In this document: positions 9,509-37,738 of the stretch, one piece after another | Layout: every line of letters begins with the position of its first letter | How positions within the stretch are numbered: the first letter of the stretch is position 1 | Assembly: GCA_026389025.1 (NCBI GenBank) | Contig: JAPLIQ010000022.1 | Span: forward strand, 1,946 to 65,945 | Length of the DNA: 64,000 nt | Direction of reading: 5' to 3' | Origin: Candidatus Babelota bacterium | GTDB lineage: Bacteria > Babelota > Babeliae > Babelales > Chromulinivoraceae | Program-made: the position numbers and the translations under genes | Notes under the pieces: model-generated | The model's database searches: none | What the model saw: only the letters and a program-made list of their open reading frames with translations | What the model was told of the DNA's origin: nothing

Positions 9509-9596
9509 GCTTAACTGTTTCACATTGAAATTAAAGAGCGATCGTGTACTCTTATTACAGATTTCAAAACAAATAATTTTCAACAATAGGAAACAA

Positions 9597-10088
9597 ATGA
9601 AAAAACTATTTTTGTCCTTAATGCTTCTTGCAGGCGTTTATCAAACCACAAATTGTTCATCTGAATCGTCAATAAATTTACGAGCTGTTTCTGTTGGTGT
9701 AATTAGTGGCGCTGCCATTCAACTTGCTTTAGAATCCATGGATTCATCTCCTCAGGCTAGAGAGTCTGCAATGATGGCAGTTGGATTGGCAGGCGGAGCG
9801 ATAGTTGCATCATCGGAAGAGCTACCTTCTGGTTATGCATTAGCGCTTGCTGTTGCAACAGGGCTATACTTATATACCTCAACACAATGTAAAAAAGCAA
9901 AAGAAGCAGAGTTCCTTCAGGAGTCAAGAAATTACTATGTGTCTTCTTACAATATTGCTCGAAATGAATTGACAAGACTACAAGCTGAGAAAGAAGAATT
10001 GACACGTTCCTTGTTTGCTGCAAGGGCTGAGGCATCATCAGCTCAAGTATCAAGACCAACGAGATCTTTTAACGAAGAGGTAGACTAA
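9597..10088 (+). CDS. cassette A: small secreted protein with Gly/Ala-rich hydrophobic segments and a coiled-coil tail
   Basis: Start moved to the ATG at 9597 (AGGAAACAA ATG). Signal peptide MKKLFLSLMLLAGVYQTTNC is shared with cassettes B and C. The ORF-track extension upstream is leader sequence. Confidence 0.6.
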   Translation: MKKLFLSLMLLAGVYQTTNCSSESSINLRAVSVGVISGAAIQLALESMDSSPQARESAMMAVGLAGGAIVASSEELPSGYALALAVATGLYLYTSTQCKKAKEAEFLQESRNYYVSSYNIARNELTRLQAEKEELTRSLFAARAEASSAQVSRPTRSFNEEVD

Positions 10089-10113
10089 AAAAATTTAACT
10101 AAGAATTTAATTA

Positions 10114-10145
10114 GAAAAAGCGCCATGAAAGTGGCGCTATTTTAT
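10114..10145. terminator. bidirectional hairpin terminator, copy 1 of 3
   Basis: AAAAAGCGCCA-TGAAAG-TGGCGCT followed by a T-rich run. Identical hairpins lie at 10833 and 11700. Confidence 0.6.
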
Positions 10146-10181
10146 TTGTAAAATTTAAAGAAAATAAGTTTAATTTTTGAA

Positions 10182-10300
10182 TTATTCAACCACAATTCTT
10201 GGAATTGAATTATTGAGTCGAGCTAAAAATAAACGCATGTTTTTTTTGGCGCCGATTCGCCAGCCATAAGCACTTAATAGTTGTTGCTCGTAGGGCGCTA
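10182..10300 (-). pseudogene. remnant of the alr 3' end, copy 1
   Basis: Minus-strand translation ...APYEQQLLSAYGWRIGAKKNMRLFLARLNNSIPRIVVE* matches the C-terminus of the intact Alr at 11768. No upstream coding body. Confidence 0.75.
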
Positions 10301-10336
10301 TAGTAATTTCACCGTCGCACTCAATATTGTTTCACA

Positions 10337-10364
10337 TTGAAAACAAGTCGCAATTCGGTATAAT
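10337..10364 (+). promoter_or_regulatory. candidate sigma70-type promoter of cassette B
   Basis: TTGAAA, 16-nt spacer, TATAAT, about 48 nt upstream of the ATG at 10412. Duplicated at 11039-11066. Confidence 0.45.
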
Positions 10365-10411
10365 GTTATTTTGATCAACAAAACTAAACAATTTTTAACA
10401 ATAGAAAACAA

Positions 10412-10744
10412 ATGAAAAGACTGTTTTTGTCCTTAATGCTTTTTACAGTTGCCTATCAAAATACACAATGTTCTGATTCGGGAGACTTTCTTGAGCCTGA
10501 GACAGTTATATCTCTAGGAGGATTTGCTATGCATATGGCAATTGGTTGCGTACATGCCAAGGATGCGCTCAATGAATTTCAAAACAATGGTCCTTCTATG
10601 AAAGCAGCGCAAAACACAGGACTGGCTACCTTAAATGTCCTTATTGCAGCTAACTATGGTTCTTCAGCTGCTGTGTTTGGTTCATTGGGTTTAAATCTAA
10701 GTCTGGGCTTAGCAACTTCTGGGTTACTTATTATGAAGCGTTAA
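10412..10744 (+). CDS. cassette B: small secreted Gly/Ala/Ser-rich hydrophobic protein
   Basis: 110 aa. Signal peptide MKRLFLSLMLFTVAYQNTQC is homologous to cassette A up to about residue 22, then unrelated. Confidence 0.6.
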   Translation: MKRLFLSLMLFTVAYQNTQCSDSGDFLEPETVISLGGFAMHMAIGCVHAKDALNEFQNNGPSMKAAQNTGLATLNVLIAANYGSSAAVFGSLGLNLSLGLATSGLLIMKR

Positions 10745-10832
10745 GCGTAAAAGTCTGCTTACTTAGTACTAGGATCTGTCAATACTACAAATAATCTTGC
10801 TAGGCAAAATAATTTAGCTAAGAATGTAATTA

Positions 10833-10862
10833 GAAAAAGCGCCATGAAAGTGGCGCTTTTTC
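10833..10862. terminator. bidirectional hairpin terminator, copy 2 of 3
   Basis: Same AGCGCCA-TGAAAG-TGGCGCT hairpin followed by TTTTT. Confidence 0.6.
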
Positions 10863-10900
10863 AATATGCAATTTAAAGAAAAATAAGCTTAATTCTTGAA

Positions 10901-11018
10901 TTATTCAACCACAATTCTTGGAATTGAATTATTGAGTCGGGCTAGAAACAAACGTACGTTTTTTTTGGCGCCAGTTCGCCAGTGATAAGCACTTAATAGC
11001 TGTTGCTCGTAGGGCACT
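10901..11018 (-). pseudogene. remnant of the alr 3' end, copy 2
   Basis: ORF-track ORF 10901-11083 ends ...VPYEQQLLSAYHWRTGAKKNVRLFLARLNNSIPRIVVE*. Its N-terminal part reads through promoter DNA, so it is not a real gene. Confidence 0.75.
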
Positions 11019-11038
11019 GTAAGCTTAACTGTTTCACA

Positions 11039-11066
11039 TTGAAAAAAAGTCGCAAGTCGGTATAAT
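11039..11066 (+). promoter_or_regulatory. candidate sigma70-type promoter of cassette C
   Basis: TTGAAA, 16-nt spacer, TATAAT. The sequence is a paralog of 10337-10364. Confidence 0.45.
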
Positions 11067-11112
11067 GTTATTTTGATCAACAAAACAAATGATTTTTAAC
11101 AATAGGAAACAA

Positions 11113-11673
11113 ATGAAAAAGCTATTCTTGTCCTTAGCGCTTTTTGGTGGATTTGCGGTAGCAGGGCCAGAAGTAAAACTTACTCAAGAGCAGGAAGAGC
11201 AGTGGAACCAATTGTATGCAAAATTCATGCGGTTTGGCAAATGCAAAAGTCTAATATTTGCAGCTGCTGACCTTAATTCTCAAGAATTAAATCCTGATCA
11301 TAAGTTGCACGATATCATGGATCCTTCACAGAAAGCAGCATGTTCAAGATGGATACAAGAAGAGTCTAGAATTTTCAAGTGTTCGCAATTAGGAGAAGTT
11401 TTTCAGCTAGAAAAATACATCTTCTCTGATGAGTCTAGCTGTATAAAGCTATTGTCTACAATGACCGCATTTGCTATAGAAGAAGAAAAAAACGTAAAAA
11501 AAATGAAACAATTCTGTATGAAGTTCGGCATGTCTGAAGAAGAAGGTATTTCTTTATTGAATGCTCAAATAGAAAAAGAGATTAAGGCACAAATAGCTCG
11601 TGCTCAAGAATTATTTAAAGATCCTGAGCTTGTTAATGATCTTTTTGGTTTAAAAGATGATTCTGCTCAGTAG
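11113..11673 (+). CDS. cassette C: small secreted protein, Glu/Lys-rich, unrelated to A and B after the signal peptide
   Basis: Start at the ATG at 11113 (AGGAAACAA ATG). Signal peptide MKKLFLSLALFGGFAVAG. Confidence 0.6.
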   Translation: MKKLFLSLALFGGFAVAGPEVKLTQEQEEQWNQLYAKFMRFGKCKSLIFAAADLNSQELNPDHKLHDIMDPSQKAACSRWIQEESRIFKCSQLGEVFQLEKYIFSDESSCIKLLSTMTAFAIEEEKNVKKMKQFCMKFGMSEEEGISLLNAQIEKEIKAQIARAQELFKDPELVNDLFGLKDDSAQ

Positions 11674-11699
11674 AAGCAATTAACTAAGAATTTTATATT

Positions 11700-11730
11700 A
11701 GAAAAAGCGCCATGAAAGTGGCGCTTTTTC
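11700..11730. terminator. bidirectional hairpin terminator, copy 3 of 3, shared by cassette C and alr
   Basis: AGCGCCA-TGAAAG-TGGCGCT flanked by an A-run and a T-run, between convergent genes. Confidence 0.65.
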
Positions 11731-11767
11731 CTTGCAAAATTTAAAGAAAATAAGTTTAATTTTTGAA

Positions 11768-12853
11768 TTATTCAACAACAATTCTTGGAATTGAATTATT
11801 GAGTCGAGCTAAAAATATTCGTACGTTTTTTTTGGCACCAATTCGCCAGTCATAAGCACTTAAAACATTATCTCCATCAGTCCCTAAAACAGTGACCACA
11901 TCATGACGTTTTACTTGAGAAATGTGAGTTACATCAACAGTAAAATAGTTCATATTTATTCTGCCAACTATGGGCGCAAATTGTCCGCGAATTAAAACTC
12001 TGCCCGTGTTTGCAAGATCAGGATCGATTCCTTCATAATATCCCATACCTAAAACAGCAAGCGTCGTATTCTTGTCTGCTGTGTAGGTGCGACCATAACC
12101 GACCGTTTGACCAGCAGGGATAGTTTTTAAACCGATAACGCGAGTTTTTAAAGATAAAATTGGTTGCAATTCTTGTTGTTTAACTGGATCTGCTTCGGGC
12201 AGATATCCATAGAGTCCAGCTCCAATGCGCGCAAAAGAGTATTGATATTTGCTTACCAGGCTGCCGTGAGAATTTGTCGTGTGAATTTGAGTTCCGTCTT
12301 CAATTAAGGGCTTAAGCAATTCTTCTTGCTCATGCACTGAGCTTTGGTCAGAAGCTTGAATCAAGTGTGAAAAAATCCCTTGCAGGAAAAGGTTGCTGTT
12401 TGATTTGATCAAATTCATGTAGCTTTCAAATTCTTCTGGCATAATGCCAAGCCGAGACAGGCCAGTATCAATTTTTAAATGAATGTTAATTTTTTTGCCA
12501 TTTTTTTCACCAAGTTTATTTAGAGCCTTGATCGTTTGCACGTCTGATACGATCATATCCAGGTTGTGCTCTGCAATATCTTGAAGTGATGTGTTGATAA
12601 ATCCAAGGACTAAAATGGGCTTGGTAACTCCATGCTGTCTGAGCTCTACGCCTTCCTGCGTGTTTGCAACGCATAGCCTCGTAACGTGTGAATTTTGATC
12701 ATGAATGAGGCCTACTTCTTTGAGTCCGTGACCGTAAGCATTTGCTTTGATGACCGGAGCGATACCAGTTTGCTTAGGAAGCCAAAGACGATACTTGTTG
12801 ATGTTGTGCTCAAGAGCTGATTTTTTAATCTCTATCCAAGTCGTGTAATTCAT
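11768..12853 (-). CDS. alr: alanine racemase
   Basis: 361 aa. PLP-lysine motif VIKANAYGHG, with family-typical sequence throughout. Confidence 0.9.
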   Translation of the reverse strand: MNYTTWIEIKKSALEHNINKYRLWLPKQTGIAPVIKANAYGHGLKEVGLIHDQNSHVTRLCVANTQEGVELRQHGVTKPILVLGFINTSLQDIAEHNLDMIVSDVQTIKALNKLGEKNGKKINIHLKIDTGLSRLGIMPEEFESYMNLIKSNSNLFLQGIFSHLIQASDQSSVHEQEELLKPLIEDGTQIHTTNSHGSLVSKYQYSFARIGAGLYGYLPEADPVKQQELQPILSLKTRVIGLKTIPAGQTVGYGRTYTADKNTTLAVLGMGYYEGIDPDLANTGRVLIRGQFAPIVGRINMNYFTVDVTHISQVKRHDVVTVLGTDGDNVLSAYDWRIGAKKNVRIFLARLNNSIPRIVVE

Positions 12854-14624: not shown

Positions 14625-15308
14625 ATGAAGGGGATAGTTTACATTTTAGTAGCAATCCTGTGTGCCAGTGGATTTTTTTTAGTTAAAAAAAGAACCCCAA
14701 GCATACAACAAATCTTGCCCGAACAATGTGTATTTTTAATGGATGAAGGATTATCGAAATCTTTTCAAGATAATGTATCATCAACGATTACTGCAGCGTA
14801 CGGACAGTCAAAAGATCCTCAAGCTGTCATTTCAAAAATCAGTCAGCAATATCCAGAAATTAGTTCTATGAAAGTTCATCTGTGCAAAACAGATAAAATT
14901 TGTTTTTTGCTTGATGGCCAAAAGCCATTGTTTTTACTCAACGGGCAGTCGGTGGTTTGTGATAATGATGCAGTCATACCAAAAGATCATTTTAGCAGTG
15001 GTATTGTCGGCGACTTAACCAGGGTAACGGCTGACGACAATCAAAATGTGTCGAGCATGGTTCGATTTTTTGAAAAACTGCCAGCAGCAATTAAAACAAA
15101 TTTTGAAACAAACTGGCTGAGCGACAGTGAAATTGTTTTACGAGAAAAAAACAAACAAGGGGAAAGTTTTTTAGTTGCGGTGCATCAAGTTCCGCAAGAA
15201 AAAGATATTGAGCTCTGCAGATCCATTCAAGATCCTGCTGCTTTCAAAAATAAAAAAAAGAGTATTGCGTATGATTTAAGATTTAATAATCAAATTGTTG
15301 TCAGGTAG
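14625..15308 (+). CDS. FtsQ/DivIB-like cell division protein (assigned mainly by position)
   Basis: 227 aa with a single N-terminal TM segment. Lies immediately upstream of ftsA-ftsZ and abuts ftsA. No strong sequence motif. Confidence 0.45.
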   Translation: MKGIVYILVAILCASGFFLVKKRTPSIQQILPEQCVFLMDEGLSKSFQDNVSSTITAAYGQSKDPQAVISKISQQYPEISSMKVHLCKTDKICFLLDGQKPLFLLNGQSVVCDNDAVIPKDHFSSGIVGDLTRVTADDNQNVSSMVRFFEKLPAAIKTNFETNWLSDSEIVLREKNKQGESFLVAVHQVPQEKDIELCRSIQDPAAFKNKKKSIAYDLRFNNQIVVR

Positions 15309-15318
15309 GGGAAATATT

Positions 15319-16551
15319 ATGGCAAAAGTTTTTCATTCTTTAATTACTTCAATCGATGTTGGAACAACTAAAATTTCTGTGCTGATTGCACAAAAAACAA
15401 GTGATGACACTGTTGAGATACTCGGCATTGGCAAATCGCCATCCGATGGTCTTGATAAAGGTGTCGTTGTTGACGTTGCTCGAACAGTTCAATCCATTAA
15501 GCGTGCTGTAAAAGAAGCTGAGCTTATGGCTGGCTGTAGCATTTCAGAAGCGTATGTAGGAATTTCTGGAAGTCATATTCACTCTTTTAACACTCATGGC
15601 GCAGTTCCTATTAAACGCTCGCAAGTGCTTCCTTCAGACATTCAAGCCGTTTTGACTGTTGCTCAGGCGGTACCAATTGAAGAGGGACAAAAAGTACTTC
15701 ATGCATTGCCACAATATTTTATGGTTGACGGAAAAGATCGTGTGGTCAATCCGCTTGGTCTTCATGGAGTCAGGCTAGAAGCTGTGGTCCATGTTATTAC
15801 TGGAGCTGTTTTTTCCATACAAAATTTAATGAAGTGTTGCGAGCTTGCAGGCGTTACTGTTAAAGATATTGTTTTAGAGCAACTAGCATCTGCTGAAGGT
15901 GTTTTAAGTCCTGATGAACGAGCTTTAGGCGTCGGCGTGCTCGACATTGGTGGTGGAACATCTGATTTTGCAATTTATCAACAAAGCAGCATTCGATACA
16001 CCAAAGTGTTTCCACTCGCTGGAAATTATTTCACTAAAGATTTAGCCGTTGGACTGCGAGCAACTTTGCATGATGCTGAACGCTTCAAACGTGAACATGG
16101 ATTTGTAGGGTACATGCAACAAGAGCATGATGAAGAACTTGAAATTGAATCGGTGCAGGGTAATTCGGTTCATAAAGTGAGCAAACAACAAGCAGGATAT
16201 ATTTTGCATGCAAGAGCTTTAGAGCTGTTCATGCTGCTGCAAGATGACATAAAACGATCATCTCTTGCATCTATGATGACTGCTGGTTTAGTTATTACAG
16301 GAGGTGGATCACTTTTGGTAGGAATTGATGACCTTGCTAAAAAAATGTTGGGAATGCCTGTACGAATTGGAAGACCTCGAGTTGATTGTGGTTTTTCAGA
16401 AATTTTAAATAATCCGACACATGCAACGGGTTATGGTCTTTTAAAATATGCCTTACGAAAAGATAAACAAGTAGGCATGAACCAGATGGAAGGACCTATG
16501 GCACAACGTGTTTTTACGAAAATGAGATCTTGGGTAGATAAATTTTTTTAA
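15319..16551 (+). CDS. ftsA: cell division protein FtsA
   Basis: Actin-fold motifs (IDVGTTKISV, DIGGGTSD, ITGGGS). Start at the ATG at 15319 after AGGGGAAA. Confidence 0.9.
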   Translation: MAKVFHSLITSIDVGTTKISVLIAQKTSDDTVEILGIGKSPSDGLDKGVVVDVARTVQSIKRAVKEAELMAGCSISEAYVGISGSHIHSFNTHGAVPIKRSQVLPSDIQAVLTVAQAVPIEEGQKVLHALPQYFMVDGKDRVVNPLGLHGVRLEAVVHVITGAVFSIQNLMKCCELAGVTVKDIVLEQLASAEGVLSPDERALGVGVLDIGGGTSDFAIYQQSSIRYTKVFPLAGNYFTKDLAVGLRATLHDAERFKREHGFVGYMQQEHDEELEIESVQGNSVHKVSKQQAGYILHARALELFMLLQDDIKRSSLASMMTAGLVITGGGSLLVGIDDLAKKMLGMPVRIGRPRVDCGFSEILNNPTHATGYGLLKYALRKDKQVGMNQMEGPMAQRVFTKMRSWVDKFF

Positions 16552-16570
16552 ACCTGTTTAAGGAGTGGTA

Positions 16571-17728
16571 ATGATAAAGTTCGATGCGCTAAATGATAAT
16601 GAGCATGATAGTTCTTTTGTGAAAATTAAAATCTTAGGAATTGGTGGTGCAGGAGGCAACACAATTAATAGCATGAAAGATTTTGGTTTAGAAGGTGTTA
16701 GTGGCTATGTGGCAGCTAACTCAGACATGCAGGCGCTGCGTCAATCGAAAGCTGATTGTAAAATTCAGTTAGGCGTTAAAGCAACTAAAGGACTTGGTTG
16801 TGGAGCAAACCCAGAAGTTGGTCGTCGCGCTACAGAAGAAGATTTAGAACAAATCATGGAGCAGCTCAGTGATGCTGATATCGTTTTTATCGTTGCAGGT
16901 ATGGGTGGCGGAACTGGTTCAGGCGGAGCTCCTGTGGTAGCCAAAGCTTTAAAAGATCGTGGCATTTTAACTATTGCGGTAGTTACCAAGCCATTTGTTT
17001 TTGAAGGAAGACGTCGCATGAATATTGCTCAAGAAGCTTTAGAAACGCTAAAAAAAGAAGTTGATACATTGATTGTAGTTCCTAATGAAAAACTATTAAA
17101 TCTTGTTGATCGTTCAACTTCGATGATTGAATCTTTTGAAATGATTAATCAATTATTGATGCAATCAGTAAAAAGTGTTTCTTCAATTATTTCTCGCTCT
17201 GGTCACATCAATGTAGATTTTGCAGATTTGCGTGCGATCATGAAGGGCATGGGACTTGCAATGATGGGAACTGGTAGTGCTTCTGGTGAAAATAGAGCTG
17301 TTGAAGCTGCAAAAAAAGCGATCTCTTCTCAGTTGCTTGAAAATATGGATATCAAAAGTGCACGCGGTGTACTTTTAAATATTTGTGGTGGCCCAGATTT
17401 ATCACTGCATGAAATTAATGATGCTGCAAATGTAATTTATGATGAATCAAATAAAGATGCCCATATTATTTTAGGTTCAGTAATTGATCCTAACATGGGT
17501 GATGAAGTGGTTGTCTCTGTTATTGCTACAGGTTTTTCTCCGGTGGGAGTTCAAGCACAAGCTGAAAAAATTGTCGCTTCTGTTTCTCAATTTCCACAAG
17601 AAGAAAAACGTTTGTTTGTAGAGCCACAACTTGCTAGAATTATGGCAGAAGATAGCAACAAATCTCAAGATGATTCTTTTGAGGTTCCTGCTTATTTAAG
17701 GCAACAGCAGGGTATTGATCAAAAATAA
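16571..17728 (+). CDS. ftsZ: cell division GTPase FtsZ
   Basis: GIGGAGGN, the tubulin signature GGGTGSG, and NVDFADL. AAGGAG SD upstream. A GTG at 16565 is an alternative start. Confidence 0.95.
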   Translation: MIKFDALNDNEHDSSFVKIKILGIGGAGGNTINSMKDFGLEGVSGYVAANSDMQALRQSKADCKIQLGVKATKGLGCGANPEVGRRATEEDLEQIMEQLSDADIVFIVAGMGGGTGSGGAPVVAKALKDRGILTIAVVTKPFVFEGRRRMNIAQEALETLKKEVDTLIVVPNEKLLNLVDRSTSMIESFEMINQLLMQSVKSVSSIISRSGHINVDFADLRAIMKGMGLAMMGTGSASGENRAVEAAKKAISSQLLENMDIKSARGVLLNICGGPDLSLHEINDAANVIYDESNKDAHIILGSVIDPNMGDEVVVSVIATGFSPVGVQAQAEKIVASVSQFPQEEKRLFVEPQLARIMAEDSNKSQDDSFEVPAYLRQQQGIDQK

Positions 17729-17742
17729 GGCAACAACTTTAC

Positions 17743-18456
17743 ATGAAGAAAATAAATCGTGATTCTTTGCTCATGTTTTTTGGCGACAAGCAGCATGAAC
17801 TTTCTATGAAAGAAATCAAAGAGTCACGATTTTCTTTGCCTTTAAAAACACTCATTAATGATTTTGGTATAAACAACTTTATTGTTTTAGATCAGACACA
17901 TTCGGCTCAAGGGATATGCGTAGAAGATATTAACATGCAAAAATCTGAAAGCTGGTTTGAGTACCAAGGTGATTTTTTATTAACGCAGAAAAAAAATTGC
18001 GCTCTTGTTGCTTTAACAGCTGACTGCATGCCAATAATTTTGCATGACCTTGTAACTGAAACAATTGGGGTAGTTCATTCAGGATGGAGAGGCTCTGCTG
18101 CTCGCGTAGTGCAAAATGCTCTTGCTGCAATGCAAGAAAGATACGGAGCAAAGCTTGAAGATATCCAATGTTTTTTCGGACCAAGTGCAAAGCCTTGTTG
18201 TTATAAAGTAACTGCAGAATTTTTTGATCACTTTAAAAATTTTGATTATGGACAGAAAGCTTTTATAAAAAAAGAGGATACTCTTTATTTCGATAATGGT
18301 TTACTGCTGGCAGAAGGATTGAAAAAATTTGGCATACGCCCTGAGAACATATACAATGATGCTGAGCTATGCAGCATATGCAATGCTCGGTTCTGCTCAT
18401 TTAGACGAGATAAAGAGCTTGCCGGGCGTCAAGTAACAGTTGTGGCATTTCGATAA
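17743..18456 (+). CDS. pgeF: YfiH/PgeF (DUF152) purine nucleoside phosphorylase / peptidoglycan editing factor
   Basis: TADCMP, HSGWRG and CSFRRD motifs. Classic position downstream of ftsZ. Confidence 0.8.
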   Translation: MKKINRDSLLMFFGDKQHELSMKEIKESRFSLPLKTLINDFGINNFIVLDQTHSAQGICVEDINMQKSESWFEYQGDFLLTQKKNCALVALTADCMPIILHDLVTETIGVVHSGWRGSAARVVQNALAAMQERYGAKLEDIQCFFGPSAKPCCYKVTAEFFDHFKNFDYGQKAFIKKEDTLYFDNGLLLAEGLKKFGIRPENIYNDAELCSICNARFCSFRRDKELAGRQVTVVAFR

Positions 18457-29460: not shown

Positions 29461-30255
29461 ATGAATTACAGCAAACCACGCCTCCAAGGTATTGAATTAA
29501 AGAAAAGATATGGCCAGCATTTTTTAAAAGATCGGACGTATGTCGATCGAATGATTTCTGCTGTTCATTTGGATAATACTGTTTCTGTCATGGAAATTGG
29601 ATGCGGAGAAGGAATTTTGACAGGAGCAATCCTTGAAGGTCCGTGCAAACAATTAAAAGTTTTTGAGATTGATGGGCAATGGGCTGAGCATGTACAAAAT
29701 AAGTATGGCTCGGACAGCAGGCTGCATGTGATTGAAAATAACATTTTGGATGTTTATTGGGACACGCTCCTGCCTGAAGCACCTTGGGTTCTTTTGGCAA
29801 ATCTTCCCTATCAAATAACGTTTCCTATTTTGTATTTACTCCAAAAAAATAGAGAAATGTTTTTGGAAGGCGTAATTATGATTCAAGAAGAAGTTGCGCA
29901 AAAAATTGTGAAAACTTCTGGACGCGGTCATGGTTATTCTTCTTTGTATTTTCAACATTATTTTGATTGGAAGTTAATGGATAAAATTGCTCCTGAAGCT
30001 TTTTATCCAGCGCCTAACGTTTTTTCTCGGTTGTTGTACTTTAAACCCAAAAAAGTTGTTCAAGTAATTGAACGTGAAGAAGAGTTTTGGAAGTTTATTA
30101 AATTGTGTTTTGTGCAACCGCGCAGAACATTTCGCAACAATCTAGCTCAGTCACATTTTGATATAGAAAAATTGGACGAGCAAACATTGAAAAAACGCGC
30201 TGAGCAACTTTCAATGGAAGAGTTTTTACAGGTTTGGCAGCTTTTAATTGCATAA
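29461..30255 (+). CDS. rsmA: 16S rRNA (adenine1518/1519-N6)-dimethyltransferase
   Basis: YGQHFLKD, EIGCGEGILT (SAM site) and ANLPYQIT. Confidence 0.9.
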   Translation: MNYSKPRLQGIELKKRYGQHFLKDRTYVDRMISAVHLDNTVSVMEIGCGEGILTGAILEGPCKQLKVFEIDGQWAEHVQNKYGSDSRLHVIENNILDVYWDTLLPEAPWVLLANLPYQITFPILYLLQKNREMFLEGVIMIQEEVAQKIVKTSGRGHGYSSLYFQHYFDWKLMDKIAPEAFYPAPNVFSRLLYFKPKKVVQVIEREEEFWKFIKLCFVQPRRTFRNNLAQSHFDIEKLDEQTLKKRAEQLSMEEFLQVWQLLIA

Positions 30256-30272
30256 ATAAGCTTAAATTTTAT

Positions 30273-30309
30273 AGGCTCGAATTCAGTTTGGATTCGGGCC
30301 TATTTTTTT
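30273..30309 (+). terminator. rho-independent terminator directly abutting the next gene's RBS
   Basis: AGGCTCGAAT-loop-ATTCGGGCCT plus TATTTTTTT, immediately followed by AAGGAG and the GTG at 30323. Duplicated at 33716. Confidence 0.55.
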
Positions 30310-30322
30310 AAGGAGAAGCTTT

Positions 30323-33300
30323 GTGAAGAAAATAATAGTAAGCTTGGTGGCAATTTTTAGTTGTGGTTCAGTTCAGGCTATTAATATTAAATTGCTTAAG
30401 GGTACGCATACTATTGCGCCAGAGAATTATAGTCCTGTTATGGGAGTATCGTTTTTAGAGTGTGGGATTGCAGAGCAGTGGTATAAATTGAGTGCTCGAA
30501 GTCAAGCAGCGCAACTGAAAGAAGTTTTAGAAAAAAATCCTAAGGCTCTGATTGACAATCCTGAGCTAACAAAATTTACTCAAAATATGCCAAAAAATAG
30601 CGCAACAGAAGATTTGATTATGTTGATGTTTCACATAGCTGGTGGATCATTTGGTGTGACTAATGCAGATGATAATCCTGTGAAATATTTAGAGCCGATG
30701 CATATTGGAAAAATTTTACAAGTCGTGCAAAAGTGGGAACAAGCATCTGCGAATTCAGAAAAAATGGCAGCATTAAAGGTTCAAGCAATATCGAAAAAAT
30801 CTGAGTACGATATAAAAATAACAAGTTTGCAGAAGGAAATGTCTCAGCTAAATACTAAAATTTTAGCAGCAAAAAAAACAGGTAATGATTCTTTGGTTGC
30901 CAGCCTACAAAATGAGTTAGGTTTAAAAAATGCAGATCGTGTAAAATATCAAGCTTTATCAAAAAAATTAGTAAGTCATGAGTCAATAGACTTTGTCGAA
31001 CAATCTTTGCAACAAGAATTAAATGATTTGTGTATGAGTTTTAAATTTGAACGTAAAAACAAAAAGTTGTTTACGGAAGGTGACTGGAATTCATTTGCAA
31101 AGCCGCTTATTGGATCAATTAAAGAAAGCACTGATAATCAGCGATTATACGCCGAAAATACGACGCAAGGTATTTTGCTTGGGTTTATGCTTAAAAAATC
31201 AAATACGCGTAATGATTTGCAGAGTTATTTCAGGGGACTTTTAAAGGATGAAGCCTTTGTTTTGCCTTTGACAAAGGAATATAGCTCTGCAGAAATAAAT
31301 AAAATTCTTGCTGAAAAAACAGATACTTCTAATTTTGAGAAATTGGCAGATTTATTGTCTGCATATACGAGTAAAAAATTGTATGAATCAGTCCTTCCGA
31401 GCATAACAGGCTATCAATTTGTTAACTATAAAGGGATAGAGTATTCAGATTGTATGGACACTGTGATTCGTGTGCTTGTAAATATTGTAACTTATCAACC
31501 AAATGAAAATAAGCTTGGGGTTACTCCGAGCGGTTTGCGGTTAAATAAAGAAGCTCAAGAATTTTATAAGTCAGAAGATGGACTTTGTGAAAATCCTGCA
31601 GAGGTTGGCAATATCAAGGTACATGAAGCCTGGGCTAACGTTGCTTCAAATATTCCTGGTTGCGTGTATAAACAAATAGGAACTGGGCCAGAAAATGTAA
31701 TGTCTACTCCGCCAGAAGGATTTGATGGATTTATGCCAGTCGACTATACCTTTACCCAGAAAGCTCCAGGAAAAATTGAAATAGATGGTACATCTTATGA
31801 TTCTTATCCTGTAACGGTTGGTGTAAAAACATATACATTGGTACAAAAAAAAGTTGGCAATGCGACTTATTTGCTTGTGCCAAAAAATTCAGAACTTTTT
31901 TGCTGTGAAATGAGAACTAACTTATTAAATATTGTTATAGCGTTAAGTAAGATCCTTGATTTAGGTCTTTACTCAAAATTTGATGAAATATATGAGCCTG
32001 ATTTTGCCTTAAATAAATTTAAGCAGCTTTGTGAAAAGTTGAATTGGGAGCCTTTAGTTGAGATAACAAAACTTGATCAGACAGGGGAAATGATTATTCC
32101 TATTAATGTTGGGCAAAGTAAATTTTCTCTTAATTTGGACTATAATCGTCATGCAAAAATTACTGATATAATTGAAAAAACATACAATGTTAATCTTGAA
32201 GTATCACCAGCAACAAGTCAGTCAAGAGTTGCTGCAATAGTTGGAGTTGGCCTTAAAAAAATAGCAGTTCTTCCTGATGACTTACAAGCAGCTTGTTTGT
32301 ATAAAAATGTAGCTGCTTTAAGTATTAATCAGCGCATTGAGGTTGTTGACGAGATGCTTAAAGATAAAAATAGTTTGAAAGATGTGGAAAAAAATTATGT
32401 TAAATGTTTAATCATGAGTTTTAGTTTGGTTGATCATTTAAGCTATTTACCAATAATAGTTGACTATTTTGGGGAAGACTTGAAAAAAGTAGGGTTGGGT
32501 GATTTTATTGTATCAGCTTTAAATCTACATGATGCTACACATAAAAGTGATCTTCTTCTGCTATCATTGTCAAACTTGATTAAATATGAATTAATAACAG
32601 GGGATCAAATATTGCCACTGCTTCCAGTGATTGAAAAAGGACTGAGTAGTTCAAGTAGCTCTGTTCAATCTGCCGCTATTTCAGCAGTTACTAGTTTAAT
32701 AGGAGCTAAGTTAGTAACAGTTGATCAAGTATTGCCATTGCTTGCAAAAGGACTGAGTGGTACAGATTTGTCTACTCAATCGACTGCTATGTCAGAAGTT
32801 ACTAGTTTAATAGAAGCTAAATTAGTAACAGTTGATCAAGTATTGCCATTGCTTGAAAATGGAATGAGTAGTGCACGTTTGAATGTTCAAAATGAAGCTA
32901 TCTCAGGAATTAATGATTTAATAAAATCTAATCTAGTAGCAGTTGATCAAGTATTGCCATTGCTTAAAATCCTTGAAAAAGGACTAGATAGTACAGATTC
33001 GGATATTGAATATAAAGCTATCTCAGGAATTAATGATTTAATAAAGTCTAACTTAGTAACAGTTGATCAAGTATTGCCATTGCTTGCAAAAGGACTGAGT
33101 AGTCTTAATTTTAACGTTGAAAATAGAGCTATCTCAGGAATTAATGATTTAATAAAATCTAACCTAGTAACGGTTGATCAAGCATTGCCATTGCTTGACA
33201 TACTTGAAAAAGGACTAGGTAGAACGCCTACTATTGAGCAGAAAGCTATTTCAGGAATTAATGGTTTAATCAAATTTAAATTAGTAACTGCGGATCAAGT

Positions 33301-33499
33301 ATTTTCATTGGTTAAAGCAAGATGGAGTCATGTAAATAAAAATTCTCAAGAGCTCTTTCTGAAAACAGTTGAAAGTTTAGTTGAAGCAGAAATGATAACT
33401 AAATTAGAAATTCAGAGTTTAATTGTTGGGGCAAAAGATAACAAAATTGGTAAAAAATTAGCAGAATTAAAGGCTAAAGCAACCAGTTTCAATTCATAA
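30323..33499 (+). CDS. large secreted protein, paralog 1: orphan ~640-aa N-domain, coiled coil, seven HEAT-like repeats
   Basis: 1058 aa. AAGGAG SD plus GTG start. Signal peptide MKKIIVSLVAIFSCGSVQA. Roughly two-thirds to three-quarters identical by eye to 33766-36804 over the N-domain. Confidence 0.75.
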   Translation: MKKIIVSLVAIFSCGSVQAINIKLLKGTHTIAPENYSPVMGVSFLECGIAEQWYKLSARSQAAQLKEVLEKNPKALIDNPELTKFTQNMPKNSATEDLIMLMFHIAGGSFGVTNADDNPVKYLEPMHIGKILQVVQKWEQASANSEKMAALKVQAISKKSEYDIKITSLQKEMSQLNTKILAAKKTGNDSLVASLQNELGLKNADRVKYQALSKKLVSHESIDFVEQSLQQELNDLCMSFKFERKNKKLFTEGDWNSFAKPLIGSIKESTDNQRLYAENTTQGILLGFMLKKSNTRNDLQSYFRGLLKDEAFVLPLTKEYSSAEINKILAEKTDTSNFEKLADLLSAYTSKKLYESVLPSITGYQFVNYKGIEYSDCMDTVIRVLVNIVTYQPNENKLGVTPSGLRLNKEAQEFYKSEDGLCENPAEVGNIKVHEAWANVASNIPGCVYKQIGTGPENVMSTPPEGFDGFMPVDYTFTQKAPGKIEIDGTSYDSYPVTVGVKTYTLVQKKVGNATYLLVPKNSELFCCEMRTNLLNIVIALSKILDLGLYSKFDEIYEPDFALNKFKQLCEKLNWEPLVEITKLDQTGEMIIPINVGQSKFSLNLDYNRHAKITDIIEKTYNVNLEVSPATSQSRVAAIVGVGLKKIAVLPDDLQAACLYKNVAALSINQRIEVVDEMLKDKNSLKDVEKNYVKCLIMSFSLVDHLSYLPIIVDYFGEDLKKVGLGDFIVSALNLHDATHKSDLLLLSLSNLIKYELITGDQILPLLPVIEKGLSSSSSSVQSAAISAVTSLIGAKLVTVDQVLPLLAKGLSGTDLSTQSTAMSEVTSLIEAKLVTVDQVLPLLENGMSSARLNVQNEAISGINDLIKSNLVAVDQVLPLLKILEKGLDSTDSDIEYKAISGINDLIKSNLVTVDQVLPLLAKGLSSLNFNVENRAISGINDLIKSNLVTVDQALPLLDILEKGLGRTPTIEQKAISGINGLIKFKLVTADQVFSLVKARWSHVNKNSQELFLKTVESLVEAEMITKLEIQSLIVGAKDNKIGKKLAELKAKATSFNS
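32591..33400 (+). repeat. in-frame tandem DNA repeats of 111-120 bp encoding 37-40-aa HEAT/ARM-like units
   Basis: Unit starts (TTAGTAACAGTTGATCAAGTATTGCCATTGCTT or variants) at about 32591, 32711, 32822, 32933, 33053, 33164 and 33281. Peptide unit: LVTVDQVLPLL..KGL......AISGINDLIKSN. Confidence 0.85.
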
Positions 33500-33554
33500 A
33501 AAAGTTATTTTGTCCAAAAATCAAAAACAAGAAATAATTAAAAGAATCAAGCAA

Positions 33555-33698
33555 GTGCAACCCCGCAGAACATTTCGCAACAATCTAGCTCAGTCACATT
33601 TTGATATAGAAAAATTGGACGAGCAAACATTGAAAAAACGCGCTGAGCAACTTTCGATGGAAGAGTTTTTGCACATTTGGAAGCTTTTAATTGTATAA
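33555..33698 (+). pseudogene. duplicated 3' fragment of rsmA (last ~47 codons)
   Basis: Only a handful of mismatches by eye versus 30112-30255. The ORF-track ORF 33510-33698 is a junction chimera: a remnant of the large protein's tail (KNQKQEIIKRIK) joined to the rsmA tail. Confidence 0.85.
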
Positions 33699-33715
33699 AC
33701 AACTTTAATTTTTAT

Positions 33716-33752
33716 AGGCTCGAATTCAGTTTGGATTCGGGCCTATTTTTTT
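33716..33752 (+). terminator. duplicate of the rsmA terminator
   Basis: Same hairpin and T-run as 30273-30309, followed by AAGGAG and the GTG at 33766. Confidence 0.55.
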
Positions 33753-33765
33753 AAGGAGAAGCTTT

Positions 33766-36700
33766 GTGAAGAAAATAATAGTAAGTTTGGTGGCAATTTT
33801 TAGTTATGTTTCAGTTCAAGCAACTGTTAGTCCTATATGGCTTAAGGGTACTGTTGTTAAGGGGCTAGAGAATTGTAGTCCTTTTATGGGGCTATCGTTT
33901 TTAGAGTGGGGGATTGCAGAGCAATGGTATAAGCTGTGTCCAAAAGAGCTACAAAGGCAGATGGAAGAAGTTTTTAAAGAAAATCCTGAGGCTTTGCGTG
34001 ATAATCCTAAGCTAGCAAAATTTGTTAAAGAAATTGGTAAAAATAGCGCGACAGAAGATTTGGTTATGTCGATGTTTCATATAGCTGGCGGATCATTTGG
34101 TTTGACTAATGCAGATGATAATCCTGTGAAATATTTAGAGCCAAAACATATTGGAAAAATTTTACGCATAGTGCATAAGTGGACTGAGGCATCTTTAGAT
34201 CCAGAAAAAATCAAGACTTTAAAAAATGAAGCTAAAGATAAGAAAGCTATACATAAAGCAGCTATAGCGGAAATAGGAAAAGAAACGTCACGGTTAGCTG
34301 GAGTAATTTCAAGAGCGCAAAAATTAAATGAAGAGGTAGCGGACAGGAAAAATGAGTTAGAGATCAAAAACGCAAAGCTTAAAGAACATCAAACTTTATC
34401 AGGAAAAGTAGTAAGTCATGAGTCAACAGACTTTGTAGAAAAATCTTTGCAACAAGAATTAAATGATCTATGTATGAGTTTCGAATTTAAAGGCAAAAAC
34501 AAAAAGTTGTTTCCGGAAGCTCAATGGAAATCATTTGTAACGTCGCTTGTTGGATCAATTCAAGAAAGCACTGGTGCTCAGCGATCATACGCCGAAAATA
34601 CGCCGCAGGGTATTTTGTTGGGGTTTATGCTTAAAAAATCCAATAATAAAGATGATTTACAAAGTTATTTCAGGGGGCTTTTAAACAATGAAACCTTTGT
34701 TTTATCGCCTCAAGAGGAATATAGTTCTACAGAAATGTCTCAGACTCTTGCTAGAAAAACAGATGCCTCTGATTTTGAGAAATTTTCAGATTTATTATCT
34801 GCATTCACGATTAAAGCACTGTATGAAGCAGGTCTTCCAAGGATAACAGGCCATCAAAGTGTTAACTATAAAGGGATACAATTTGTAGATTGTATGGACA
34901 CTGCAATTCGTATGCTTGCAAATATTGTAACTTATCAACCAAATAAAAATAAGCTTGGGGTTACTCCGAGCGGTTTGCGGTTAAATAAAGAAGCTCAAGA
35001 ATTTTATAATTCAGAAAAGGGACTTTGTGCAGATCCTGCAGAAGTTGGTAATAGTAAGGTGCATCAGGCCTGGACTAACGTTGTTTCAAATATTTCTGGC
35101 TGCGTGTATAAACAAATAGGAAAAGGACCAGGCAGTGTAATCTCTGCTCCGCCAGAAGGATTTGATGGATTTATGCCAGTCGATTATATTTCTACCCAGA
35201 CAGCTTCAGGAGAAATTGAAATAGATGGTAAATCTTATAAATCTTATGCTTTAAAAATTGGTGGGACAGTATATACATTAGCACAAAAAAAAGTTGGCAA
35301 TGCCACTTATTTGCTTGTACCAAAAAATTCAGAACTTTTTTGTTGTGAAATAAGAACTAACTTATTAAATACTGTTATAGCGTTGAATAAGATTTTTGAT
35401 TTAGATCTTTACTCAAAATTTGATGATATATATGAGCCTAATTTTGCCTTAAAGAAATTTACACAGCTTTGTGAAAAGTTCAATTGGGAGCCTCAAGTTG
35501 ATATAACGAAGCTTGATCCGACAAAGGATATGATTATTCCTATTAAGGTTGGGCAAAATGAATTTTCTATTCATTTAGGCTATAATACGCATGGAGCAGT
35601 TACTAATAAAAATAAACTTGCCACGAGTGTTAATCTTGAGGTACCTGATGGAACAAGTCAGCCAGTAATTGCTGCAATAGTTAGTGCAGGACTAAAAAAA
35701 ATAAGGGATTTGCCAAAAAATTTACAACCAGGATATTTATATAAAAACGTAGATATTTCAACTGATGAAAAAAGATATCAAACTATTCTTAGTATCTTTC
35801 AATCTGCACCAGCAGAGCAAACCTATCTTAAAAAATTAATACAGAGTTTTAGTTTTGTTGAAAATGAAGAATATTTAGGCAAAATAATAACGAAAGTTTT
35901 AAATCCTCTTGAAGATGAAAAAACAATAACGGCAAGTCATAATACATTAATTGAATTTGTTTTATCTGCCGCTCTGATTCATTCCCTTCAGTATAAATCA
36001 AGCACTCTGGTATTTGATTATTTATCATCGTTTATTAAATATAACATCTTAACCATAAAAGAAGCGCTATCATTGCTTGAAAAAGGACTTGATAGTTCAT
36101 TGTGGAAAGTTGTAGATAGCAGTTGCCGAGAAATTATTGCGTTAATAAAAGAAAAATTAGTTGCAGTAGGTCAAATAGCTCCCTTAATGGAAAAAGCAGC
36201 CGGTAATAAAAATGTTAACGTTCAAAAGATGTTTTTAAAGGAAATTTTATCGCTTATAAATGACAAATTACTTACAGCAGATCAAGTGTGGCCAATTGTT
36301 GAAGAAGGATTAAAGAGCAAAGATCTTTATAATAGGAGTCATTCTGTAAACATAATTACAGCATTGGTTAAAGAAGGAATTGCAACTAAATCAAAAATTG
36401 ATCAATTATTGCCTTTTGTTGAACAAGGGTTGAGATATTCAAATACGTTTTTGCAAAGAGCGTCTGTGAGAATGATTGAATCATTGGCTGAAGCAGGAAT
36501 GATAACTCAATCAAAAATTGAGAGTTTAATTAATCTGCCAATAACTGATGATGTTAAGGAAAAATTAGAAATATTAAAGGTGAAGGCACCAGTTTCAATT
36601 TTTAAAAAGGTGAAGTTGTCACCAAAACAAACAGAAGAAATAATTAAAAGAATTAATCCAAAGCCTTATGAAAAAAAGCAGGCAATGCAAGAACAGCATC

Positions 36701-36804
36701 AAAGAGAGCTGGAAGCGCAAGAACGGTCAGAGAAAGAAGCAAGGGCGCAAAAAGAAGCAAGTGCGCAAAGGAATGATTCTGCTTCGCATGAAGTAATTCG
36801 TTAG
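33766..36804 (+). CDS. large secreted protein, paralog 2: same N-domain, four degenerate HEAT-like repeats, Lys/Glu/Gln-rich tail
   Basis: 1012 aa. Signal peptide MKKIIVSLVAIFSYVSVQA. C-terminal tail ...EEIIKRINPKPYEKKQAMQEQHQRELEAQERSEKEARAQKE. Confidence 0.75.
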   Translation: MKKIIVSLVAIFSYVSVQATVSPIWLKGTVVKGLENCSPFMGLSFLEWGIAEQWYKLCPKELQRQMEEVFKENPEALRDNPKLAKFVKEIGKNSATEDLVMSMFHIAGGSFGLTNADDNPVKYLEPKHIGKILRIVHKWTEASLDPEKIKTLKNEAKDKKAIHKAAIAEIGKETSRLAGVISRAQKLNEEVADRKNELEIKNAKLKEHQTLSGKVVSHESTDFVEKSLQQELNDLCMSFEFKGKNKKLFPEAQWKSFVTSLVGSIQESTGAQRSYAENTPQGILLGFMLKKSNNKDDLQSYFRGLLNNETFVLSPQEEYSSTEMSQTLARKTDASDFEKFSDLLSAFTIKALYEAGLPRITGHQSVNYKGIQFVDCMDTAIRMLANIVTYQPNKNKLGVTPSGLRLNKEAQEFYNSEKGLCADPAEVGNSKVHQAWTNVVSNISGCVYKQIGKGPGSVISAPPEGFDGFMPVDYISTQTASGEIEIDGKSYKSYALKIGGTVYTLAQKKVGNATYLLVPKNSELFCCEIRTNLLNTVIALNKIFDLDLYSKFDDIYEPNFALKKFTQLCEKFNWEPQVDITKLDPTKDMIIPIKVGQNEFSIHLGYNTHGAVTNKNKLATSVNLEVPDGTSQPVIAAIVSAGLKKIRDLPKNLQPGYLYKNVDISTDEKRYQTILSIFQSAPAEQTYLKKLIQSFSFVENEEYLGKIITKVLNPLEDEKTITASHNTLIEFVLSAALIHSLQYKSSTLVFDYLSSFIKYNILTIKEALSLLEKGLDSSLWKVVDSSCREIIALIKEKLVAVGQIAPLMEKAAGNKNVNVQKMFLKEILSLINDKLLTADQVWPIVEEGLKSKDLYNRSHSVNIITALVKEGIATKSKIDQLLPFVEQGLRYSNTFLQRASVRMIESLAEAGMITQSKIESLINLPITDDVKEKLEILKVKAPVSIFKKVKLSPKQTEEIIKRINPKPYEKKQAMQEQHQRELEAQERSEKEARAQKEASAQRNDSASHEVIR

Positions 36805-36870
36805 TAGATTCTAAATTTTTTATTTTCACATATTTGGCAAATGTGTGAAAAATATAATTAAAGTTCTTAT

Positions 36871-36902
36871 AATCCCCGCAGAGATGTGGGGATTATTTTT
36901 TT
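36871..36902 (+). terminator. rho-independent terminator between convergent genes
   Basis: AATCCCC-loop-GGGGATT followed by ATTTTTTT. The right arm overlaps the stop codon of the minus-strand permease gene. A second hairpin (TTCACATAT...ATGTGTGAA) lies at 36825-36849. Confidence 0.5.
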
Positions 36903-37738
36903 AGATGTTGAAAAAACAATGTTAAAAAAAACAAGAGTCCATTCACGGTTGCAATCGATCCTGCAATTGAAACATTGAAAAAATGGGCCACTATGCAACC
37001 GCTGACTGCAGCAATAAGTCCAAGCAGGCAAGCGGTGATCAGCATGTGTGATAATCGCTTTGTAAGCAAGTAAGCAGTTGCGGGTGGAATAATCATAAAG
37101 GCAACAACTAAGATTGCACCAGCGCACTCAAAAGCACCTACAATGGTAACGGCTGTAATGGTCATGAGTCCGTAATGAATTAAGTGCGGACGGTAACCGA
37201 GAAGCGTGCCATAGTCTTTATCAAAGGTTGCGATCTTTAACGCTGGATAAAGAGCTGCAATGGTGATGATGTTGACAGCTAAAATAAGAGACATGGTCCA
37301 GATTGAGTAAGGTCCAACATCTTTTCCCCATAGCGTTAAACTATGAAATGGTGCAAATGAAAGTTCGCCGAGCAGTACAGCATCAATATCGATATGAATT
37401 GTGCTTGCGTACAAATTAATTAAAATAATGGCGATAGAAAATAACAGTGGAAAAACAATTCCAATGACAGCGTCAGGTTTGAGCCGTTTGCTGTAAATGA
37501 GCAGTTCTATAAAAGCCACCATGACAATTCCTGTAAGCGTTGCTCCTACAAAAATCAAAGGAGAATGCAGATTGCCTACGATAAAAAATGAAAGAACAAT
37601 GCCGAGCAAAATAGCATGGCCAAGCGCATCACTCATCAAACTTGTACCACGTAAAATTAAAAATGTTCCAGGCAGGGCGCAAGATGCAGCAACCAGAAGT
37701 GCAGTTACAAGCAGTTGTAGATAAATAATATTTATCAT
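36893..37738 (-). CDS. metal (Mn/Zn/Fe) ABC transporter permease, TroD/YtgD-like
   Basis: 281 aa, ABC-3 family-like multi-TM protein (MSDALGHAILLGIV). Last gene of the SBP-ATPase-permease-permease operon. Confidence 0.8.
   Translation of the reverse strand: MINIIYLQLLVTALLVAASCALPGTFLILRGTSLMSDALGHAILLGIVLSFFIVGNLHSPLIFVGATLTGIVMVAFIELLIYSKRLKPDAVIGIVFPLLFSIAIILINLYASTIHIDIDAVLLGELSFAPFHSLTLWGKDVGPYSIWTMSLILAVNIITIAALYPALKIATFDKDYGTLLGYRPHLIHYGLMTITAVTIVGAFECAGAILVVAFMIIPPATAYLLTKRLSHMLITACLLGLIAAVSGCIVAHFFNVSIAGSIATVNGLLFFLTLFFQHLKK

Follow-up and report, generated by a model that had tools for sequence, protein, structure and literature searches.

Tandem duplication by illegitimate recombination leaves a direct repeat, a single novel join and a truncated fragment of the flanking gene, all absent in sister taxa. 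Mosaic divergence among tandem copies has also been described. In the lpl tandem cluster in nuSa-alpha of S. aureus, as presented in the excerpted text of Tsuru and Kobayashi (2008, PMC2568036), parts of one open reading frame (ORF) have incongruent histories, recombination within the conserved parts shuffles the variable parts, and the unit that evolves reaches from the 3′ end of one gene across the intergenic DNA into the 5′ end of the following gene. Extracts of two further reports describe young tandem duplicates with mosaic divergence, namely HMA4 of Arabidopsis halleri (bioRxiv 10.1101/2025.10.29.685298) and the immunity arrays esaG/tsaI of the type VII secretion system (PMC9484751). The locus described here lies within a 64,000-nt stretch of DNA (the window) of a Candidatus Babelota bacterium (contig JAPLIQ010000022.1 of assembly GCA_026389025.1), and consists of rsmA followed by two large tandem paralogs encoding secreted proteins, P1 of 1058 amino acids (aa) and P2 of 1012 aa. 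The genome of the window, G000, is a metagenome-assembled genome of 909 kb in 38 contigs, and the locus is in the interior of an 84-kb contig. We consider it likely that the locus arose by a single head-to-tail duplication of about 3.44 kb within this lineage, by illegitimate recombination after the split from the relative G008, and that the copies diverged later. Positions below are those of the window, and features are on the plus strand unless stated otherwise.

The rsmA gene (29461-30255), encoding a 16S rRNA adenine dimethyltransferase of 264 aa (Pfam RrnaAD, E = 5.9e-40), is intact, and its last 47 codons form the left end of the duplicated unit. The first copy of the 5′ block of the unit (30112-30379) contains rsmA codons 218-264 and the stop codon, a terminator hairpin, the ribosome binding site (RBS) AAGGAG, a GTG start codon and the 19-codon signal peptide of P1. 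As the first base of rsmA codon 218 is position 30112, 47 codons plus the stop codon were copied, and the corresponding remnant (33555-33698) shows seven differences from the real rsmA. The repeat finder paired 30112-30378 with 33555-33821 at 94% identity, and comparison of 30112-30379 with 33555-33822 gave 16 differences in 268 nt, with a longest identical run of 92 nt. These differences were distributed as 7 in the 144 nt of the rsmA tail, 4 in the 67 intergenic nt and 5 in the 57 nt of the signal-peptide codons. P1 (30323-33499) and P2 (33766-36804) showed 56% identity over 931 aa in BLASTP. A further 2.2 kb of DNA is similar at 81%, which together with the 268 nt at 94% is far beyond chance. 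The two copies are adjacent and direct, in the same orientation (30112-33552 and 33555-36658), with an offset that passes from 3443 to 3440 to 3106. The original prediction, that 33555-33765 repeats 30112-30322 (rsmA tail, terminator, RBS and GTG) ahead of a paralog of the 1058-aa gene, and that the unit ran from about rsmA codon 218 to the tail of the large gene, agrees with these comparisons at the left end and with a tail homology of 57 identical positions in 71 (33482-33552 against 36588-36658) at the right end.

The right end of the unit was placed at about 36653-36658, at the end of a P2 tail segment (36576-36658) homologous to 33470-33552. The sequence GAAATAATTAAAAGAAT at 33531-33547 is identical to 36637-36653; P-tail homology stops at 33547, and rsmA homology resumes at 33555, so that the junction is as readable as had been claimed. 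The join is a 7-nt window, CAAGCAA (33548-33554), between the two homologies, with no clear microhomology. The locus thus has one novel junction, where the 3′ end of the unit runs into its 5′ end, which begins with a truncated copy of rsmA, the flanking gene. Just upstream, an extra base in P1 at about 33479-33481 (GCAACC, against GC-ACC in P2 in the global alignment) puts a TAA at 33497-33499 in frame, as predicted, so that the insertion site and the resulting stop codon together span 33479-33499. The following stretch (33500-33547) is a relic of the original P1 tail, out of frame or untranslated and homologous to P2 36606-36653. The relic together with the junction window (33500-33552) is identical to the P2 tail at 41 of 53 nt. 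Other members of the family keep the tail motif (K/R)APVS...EI(I/V)xRM in frame, and the tails of P1 and P2 both lack a segment of about 10 aa found in three other family genes (G008_C5, C30a and G003_C59a). A programmed frameshift at the end of P1 was considered and rejected, as a slippery motif is absent at the indel, and the extra base was treated as a mutation.

The 62-aa junction ORF (33510-33698), suspected from the outset to be a chimera, reads ...QEIIKRIKQ|VQPRRTFRNNLAQSHFD..., in which the frame of the P tail continues directly into that of rsmA. As the join is read through in both parental frames, the original product would have been a P-RsmA(218-264) fusion, later cut off by the frameshift. 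The ORF gives a weak match to the RsmA family (TIGR00755, E = 0.0097, far below the cutoff), and the three synonymous and three nonsynonymous changes in the remnant lineage are uninformative on whether it is a gene; neither the coding changes nor the NCBIfam match provided evidence for the junction ORF as a gene.

Because the locus comes from a 38-contig metagenome assembly, two strain alleles or dispersed paralogs might have been stitched in tandem by the assembler. Genes of this family do break assemblies, as contig C30 of G000 (3.9 kb) ends inside family genes on both sides, and an exact search for the junction in metagenome contigs and exact look-ups of the P1 and P2 proteins returned no match, which is not evidence of absence. 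However, the P tail and rsmA codon 218 share no k-mer, and a mis-join in the assembly graph cannot create the junction. The remnant, with seven private differences in 144 nt, and the P-tail relic, with 12 in 53 nt, look like an evolved copy and not like a read path that was collapsed or duplicated. In addition, the copies are only about 81% identical, the identical run they share is nowhere longer than 92 nt, and the locus is in the interior of the 84-kb contig. An assembly artefact is therefore highly improbable.

For comparison of rsmA and its surroundings, 10 genomes of the genus were used, among them G002, G003 and G008, and the family was searched for in 31 related genomes. The rsmA gene adjoins mreB in all 10 genomes, and a second rsmA-like match was found only in G000. 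The genome closest to G000 is G008, with 97% aa identity in both RsmA and MreB. The number of family genes between rsmA and ytgD, which had been proposed as a check, differs among these relatives. In G002 (contig C4, 8094-8107) mreB-rsmA directly faces ytgD with no gene between, in G008 (contig C5, 7855-11406) the gap holds one large family gene, and in G000 it holds two. In G003 (contig C98, 2750-6866) it holds other cargo, an unrelated small secreted ORF followed by four tandem secreted paralogs of about 220 aa (40-46% identical to one another) and an AAA ATPase. In six other congeners the family matches are not on the contig that carries rsmA. Within the genus, genes repeatedly land and expand between rsmA and the ytg metal-transporter operon.

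The copied rsmA fragment allows the event to be dated. The remnant shares nine sites with the G000 rsmA against G008, four of which are derived relative to G003 and G002, and agrees with G008 at one site only. Since the remnant carries these four G000-specific derived bases, the duplication is, on the sequence comparison, younger than the split between G000 and G008. Fourfold degenerate third positions (4-fold sites) served as the neutral yardstick, and NG86 synonymous divergence (dS) was also computed. Between G000 and G008, five flanking housekeeping genes differ at 182 of 672 4-fold sites (0.27), whereas P1 and P2 differ at 13 of 110 (0.118) in the core (aa 191-620) and at 5 of 25 in the N-module. 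P1 and P2 were sisters in the segment trees of the core (support 100/100) and of the N-module (100/98), and the G008 gene G008_C3 was sister to the pair (94/96).

Insertion of P2 (or P1) beside the other copy from another locus or strain would also place two paralogs side by side. Members of the family are found at several loci and come and go, with one copy beside Hsp70 in G008, two in G003 and none in G000, and the homolog P0003 at yet another locus; moreover, the gene at the rsmA site of G008 is not a core ortholog of P1 or P2. Such a separate arrival nevertheless has very little to recommend it, as rsmA codons 218-264 and the hairpin in front of P2 can only stem from the rsmA locus itself, and P1 and P2 are mutually closest in the N-module, core and tail.

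The contrast between 94% identity in the flank and 56% in the proteins had been read as anomalous conservation of the flank relative to its cargo. The divergence is 0.049 in the remnant (7/144), 0.118 at 4-fold sites of the core (13/110) and 0.197 in the extreme tail (14/71). The difference between flank and core 4-fold sites gave p = 0.058 in Fisher's test, and the anomaly was not upheld. A flank much younger than the core, as NG86 dS of 0.245 in the core against a flank divergence of 5-6% might indicate, found no significant support on the same yardstick. As the real rsmA is constrained, the remnant side alone drifts, and the expected value is thus even closer to the observed one. The extreme tail belongs to the same class as flank and core and is clearly different from the old C-terminal class described below. 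The flank, N-module, core and extreme tail therefore appear coeval. The contrast in identity arises mainly because the proteins are weakly constrained: the ratio of nonsynonymous to synonymous divergence (dN/dS) amounts to 0.68 for the core and to 0.5-1.2 for the N-module, while neighbouring housekeeping genes have values of 0.05-0.12, and to this weak constraint is added a burst of nonsynonymous change at the mature N-terminus of P2.

Tandem paralogs 3.4 kb apart are classic substrates of gene conversion, and the original prediction had suggested conversion, diversifying selection or both, pointing to blocks identical even at synonymous sites. An old tandem duplication, of the age of the C-terminal third, might accordingly have been kept similar in flank, N-module, core and tail by repeated conversion between P1 and P2. 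Synonymous divergence is indeed strongly heterogeneous along the locus, with nominally the lowest divergence in the flank (4.9-6%). As noted, the DNA of the blocks encoding NKLGVTPSGLRLNKEAQEFY and PPEGFDGFMPVDY differs little or not at all between the copies, and the longest core run without synonymous change, aa 361-426, is marginally long (permutation p = 0.046). These blocks are not clearly beyond expectation, however: synonymous differences are almost evenly spread over the core (window-variance p = 0.39), and the aa 361-426 run holds about a dozen amino-acid differences, which recent conversion would have erased. Concerted evolution would further require three or more separate tracts dating from about the same time: one from the flank to aa 125, one at aa 191-620 and one in the extreme tail. 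The neutral remnant, found in no other genome of the genus, has G000-specific derived bases, and the burst in P2 lies directly beside the near-identical signal peptide with synonymous divergence not raised. Taking these values with the flank-core comparison, no convincing P1-P2 conversion tract was found, and long-term concerted evolution is unlikely. Weak or diversifying selection on the proteins is supported.

Uniform divergence across flank and coding sequence, which would have spoken against a mosaic, was not seen. The real mosaic is coarser than the alternation of short blocks first proposed, and consists of the C-terminal third and the N-terminus of mature P2. In the C-terminal third, from about aa 621, 17 of 34 4-fold sites differ (0.50) against 13 of 110 (0.118) in the core (p = 8.6e-6), and NG86 dS is 1.08. 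Breakpoint scans on site triplets detected a change of affinity near aa 602-670 (permutation p <= 0.005; p <= 0.005-0.017 with synonymous sites only). Set against the two genes of G008, P1 and P2 alike resemble G008_C3 in the N-module and core and G008_C5/C30a beyond, and the two differ greatly from each other in the latter part. In P1 this region (aa 621 to about 1040; 32183-33440) holds six or seven repeat units of 111-120 nt, mutually 75-92% identical, with a history separate from that of P2, whose C-terminal third (35623-36545) has about four degenerate repeats and is close to no sampled family member. The unique pre-repeat stretch, aa 621-760, differs at 7 of 17 4-fold sites, which repeat amplification does not explain. 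The much greater age of the C-terminal third at synonymous sites implies exchange among paralogs and/or turnover of repeats; either copy may be the one that changed, as 4-fold sites are few and the repeats confound the alignment. In the trees of the C-terminal third and of the linker P2 takes an outside position, without significant support (p = 0.20 and 0.19 in the approximately unbiased (AU) test, with 17-34 4-fold sites).

The second mosaic part is the N-terminus of mature P2 (about aa 20-76; 33823-33993), where a motif, INIKLLKGTHTIVPADYSPVMG, that is almost invariant across the family, the most distant paralog included, has been rewritten in this lineage. Over aa 20-75, outgroup-polarised changes numbered 31.3 nonsynonymous and 3.7 synonymous on the P2 lineage, and one nonsynonymous and none synonymous on the P1 lineage. 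The nonsynonymous excess of P2 over the core is strong (p = 7e-14), and a synonymous excess is absent (p = 0.30). The ratio of the burst, 2.2, is not significantly greater than 1 (p = 0.13), and both relaxation and positive selection fit. Recombination, considered because G008_C3 is a nearer match to P1 over aa 25-75 than P2 is, was rejected: P1 and P2 are sisters in the tree of this segment (100/98), with a P2 branch five times as long and no rise in divergence at synonymous sites.

Several observations weigh against a single duplication of one resident gene followed by divergence and C-terminal exchange. Both the junction and the 1-nt insertion are known from a single metagenome assembly. 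The AU test does not reject P1 and P2 as sisters in the C-terminal third (p = 0.20) or the linker (p = 0.19), and the numbers of 4-fold sites in these segments are small (n = 17-34). Recent amplification of the P1 repeats, with non-equivalent units being aligned, could explain part of the C-terminal excess. Finally, the rsmA-adjacent gene of G008, G008_C5, is the core ortholog of C30a of G000 (100/100) and not of P1 or P2, which suggests that the history of the locus before the duplication was more complex than one resident gene; on these relationships, the resident gene at the rsmA site is a different family member in G000 and in G008.

On the favoured explanation, a single illegitimate (non-homologous) recombination would have generated the ~3.44-kb head-to-tail duplication in the G000 lineage. 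One break would lie at rsmA codon 217/218 and the other in the 3′ tail of the large gene next to it, which encodes a secreted protein, immediately beyond ...EIIKRI. The product would have had the order rsmA, P1, an in-frame fusion of the P tail with rsmA codons 218-264, terminator, RBS, P2 and ytgD. P1 would have kept its real upstream context but lost its last ~50 codons, whereas P2 would have kept the full tail and, with the copied hairpin, RBS and signal peptide, would have been a complete gene. A later +1 insertion would then have ended P1 ahead of the chimeric extension. Both copies presumably stayed open under weak constraint (dN/dS ~0.7) with the invariant residues of the core kept, while only substitutions that change amino acids probably rewrote the N-terminus of mature P2. 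In at least one copy the C-terminal third, pre-repeat part and helical repeats together, would have been replaced or reshuffled by exchange within the family and/or internal turnover of repeats.

The P proteins share a layout of signal peptide (MKKIIVSLVAIFS..VQA|), N-module (aa 20-125), coiled-coil-like variable linker, 440-aa core (aa 200-640; 30920-32242 in P1 and 34360-35682 in P2), helical-repeat solenoid and charged tail. P1 has all of these up to its early end after the 1-nt insertion, and P2 has the same architecture with all invariant residues and the full charged C-terminal tail. The C-terminal part consists of tandem helical repeats of about 37 residues matching HEAT-type profiles, as in an alpha-solenoid, and among PDB entries the family profile matches designed PPR and HEAT-type solenoids (E = 4e-16 to 1e-4). 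The repeats of P1 matched the Pfam families TVHS-like (32.8 bits, cutoff 27) and ParcG (26, cutoff 22), with HEAT below its cutoff (17.8 against 23.5), and P2 alone gave no Pfam match. Five core residues, C377, N387, Y449, N536 and H610, do not vary among the 76 sequences compared, and both copies keep these and eleven near-invariant residues. In 4000 simulations of random substitution at the observed density, none kept the first 620 codons open in either copy. As the frames are open and all invariant core residues are kept, P1 and P2 are both maintained by selection; only the last ~70 codons of P1 (relic tail and rsmA part) were discarded.

AlphaFold2 modelled the core with confidence (predicted local distance difference test score of 92 for aa 200-640 and 95 for aa 355-640). 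In the core models the invariant C377 starts a helix (178-191) and the invariant H610 starts a strand (411-416). Foldseek comparison of the core models with the PDB gave nothing at E <= 0.001 for either model, and the core had no Pfam or NCBIfam match and no PDB sequence match by family profile. Membership in the papain-like (Cys-His) hydrolases was considered, as the placement of Cys and His fits, but these searches showed no similarity in fold or sequence to known members. It is a reasonable guess from the models that the core is a Cys-His enzyme, possibly of a new fold, and a role in host interaction may be guessed from an enzyme-like core bearing Cys and His next to a protein-binding solenoid. 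A bolder reading, which we regard as doubtful, is that the proteins form an undescribed signal-peptide family largely restricted to Dependentiae-type genomes, that the core is a new Cys-His enzyme fold, that the duplication has been caught at an early step of functional divergence in an arms race with the host, with the N-terminus of P2 rewritten under positive selection, and that the C-terminal solenoids are swapped as targeting modules.

A terminator-like hairpin of 15 pairs with a T-run (30271-30303) lies between rsmA and P1, and its second copy (33714-33746) is identical; in both, the T-run directly abuts the RBS AAGGAG. The hairpin is conserved with changes in G008 and in G003, where it takes the form ATAGGCC TGAATT..AATTCGGGCCTAT. 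As it is confined to the rsmA-P locus in the G000 genome, a dispersed repeat element was rejected. Downstream of P2, another terminator-like hairpin (36869-36896) separates it from the ytgD-like permease gene, which is convergent (36893-37738, minus strand). No sigma-70-like site was found in 30112-30322 or 33555-33765, and the region contained 20 promoter-like sites against 27 in shuffled sequences, leaving retention of the copied rsmA tail as a promoter for the P genes unsupported. An RNA gene or tRNA integration site was also considered, and yielded only sub-threshold Rfam matches driven by the hairpins, and no tRNA. Because there is no promoter-like site between hairpin and RBS, the simplest reading is that P1 and then P2 would be transcribed by read-through from mreB-rsmA across the hairpins. 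Several other family members (on contig C30 of G000 at ~3100-3130, G008_C5 and G003_C59b) have a AAAAAGATAATTTT(T) box just 5′ of the RBS, which may be a -10-like element; P1 and P2 lack it.

Strong matches to the family occur only within the genus among the 31 related genomes, often in several copies and in tandem, and two genomes of the same order gave marginal matches (E ~1e-5). A search for related loci in genome contigs with P2 returned no relative, in contrast to the search of the 31 genomes. Among 1.84 billion proteins, only about 212 cluster representatives belong to the family. G000 carries five or more of these genes, namely P1, P2, C7 and another tandem pair, C30a and C30b, on contig C30. 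That contig (3868 nt) ends inside family genes on both sides, and an rsmA remnant is absent between C30a and C30b. C30b shows 68% aa identity to P1 over 184 aa and has an in-frame TAA after about 196 codons, indicating a pseudogene or an assembly or sequence error. On the contig with the homolog P0003, a 1052-aa ORF (14773-17931), 3.7 kb downstream, is possibly another member; this further locus is flanked by a YchF-like GTPase region and by a gene of the Memo family. At the site between Hsp70 and a gene of about 500 aa, G008 has one copy (contig C3, 4720-7452), G003 has two in tandem (contig C59, G003_C59a and G003_C59b) and G000 has none (contig C1, 31430-31759). As P1 and P2 are closest to the G008 copy, its absence from this site in G000 indicates relocation or loss; the family moves between loci. 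P0004 and P0006, on contig C59 of G003, are labelled 'Candidatus Saccharimonadales bacterium' by NCBI, yet a genome search places G003 (1.6 Mb, 160 contigs and 4% contamination) in the genus of G000, and the bin is probably mixed or wrongly labelled.

Elsewhere in the window, the comF-alr array (9488-11888) contains a block of about 216 nt three times and a promoter/leader block three times. In it, ORF 10901-11083 (minus strand; ...GAKKNVRLFLARLNNSIPRIVVE) is what remains of an alr C-terminus, and this duplication too is anchored in the 3′ end of a neighbouring gene. The alr relics between the cassettes suggest that duplication anchored in the tails of housekeeping genes recurs in G000. Like that array, the P locus has tandem secreted-protein genes, repeated leaders and 3′ remnants of a housekeeping gene between them. 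In the comF-alr array, however, the flanks are shared and the bodies are unrelated, whereas the P bodies are homologous to each other and, along two-thirds of their length, of the same age as the flank; hence the proposal that both loci bear one signature was not supported.

Compared with textbook tandem duplication, the P locus shows no difference in kind, and is unusual in its well-preserved join, its in-frame fusion and its setting in a reduced genome of about 0.9 Mb. It is an ordinary but clean example of growth in a secreted-protein gene family, and shows that a very small, host-dependent genome still expands and remodels a lineage-specific family of this type. The copied rsmA fragment serves as a built-in neutral clock and an outgroup-anchored marker, so that one locus separates the age of a duplication, selection on the proteins and exchange among paralogs, which are usually confounded. 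More unusual than the mechanism is a protein family with a confidently modelled core and no structural relative in the PDB. As in the lpl cluster, in the excerpted account of it (PMC2568036), the tandem paralogs encode exported, presumably host-related proteins. Unlike lpl, the P locus has only two copies, its unit includes an rsmA remnant that both dates and orients the duplication, and the G000 data come from a single genome; the conserved part is the 5′ two-thirds of the gene, where in lpl, in that account, it is a central block. With HMA4 and esaG/tsaI, as far as the extracts of those reports describe them, the locus shares young tandem copies with divergence that is mosaic along the gene. 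In contrast to the conversion mosaics reported there, the tests on P1 and P2 show no conversion tracts between the copies, and replacement or turnover of the C-terminal part together with lineage-specific amino-acid change fits the P locus better.

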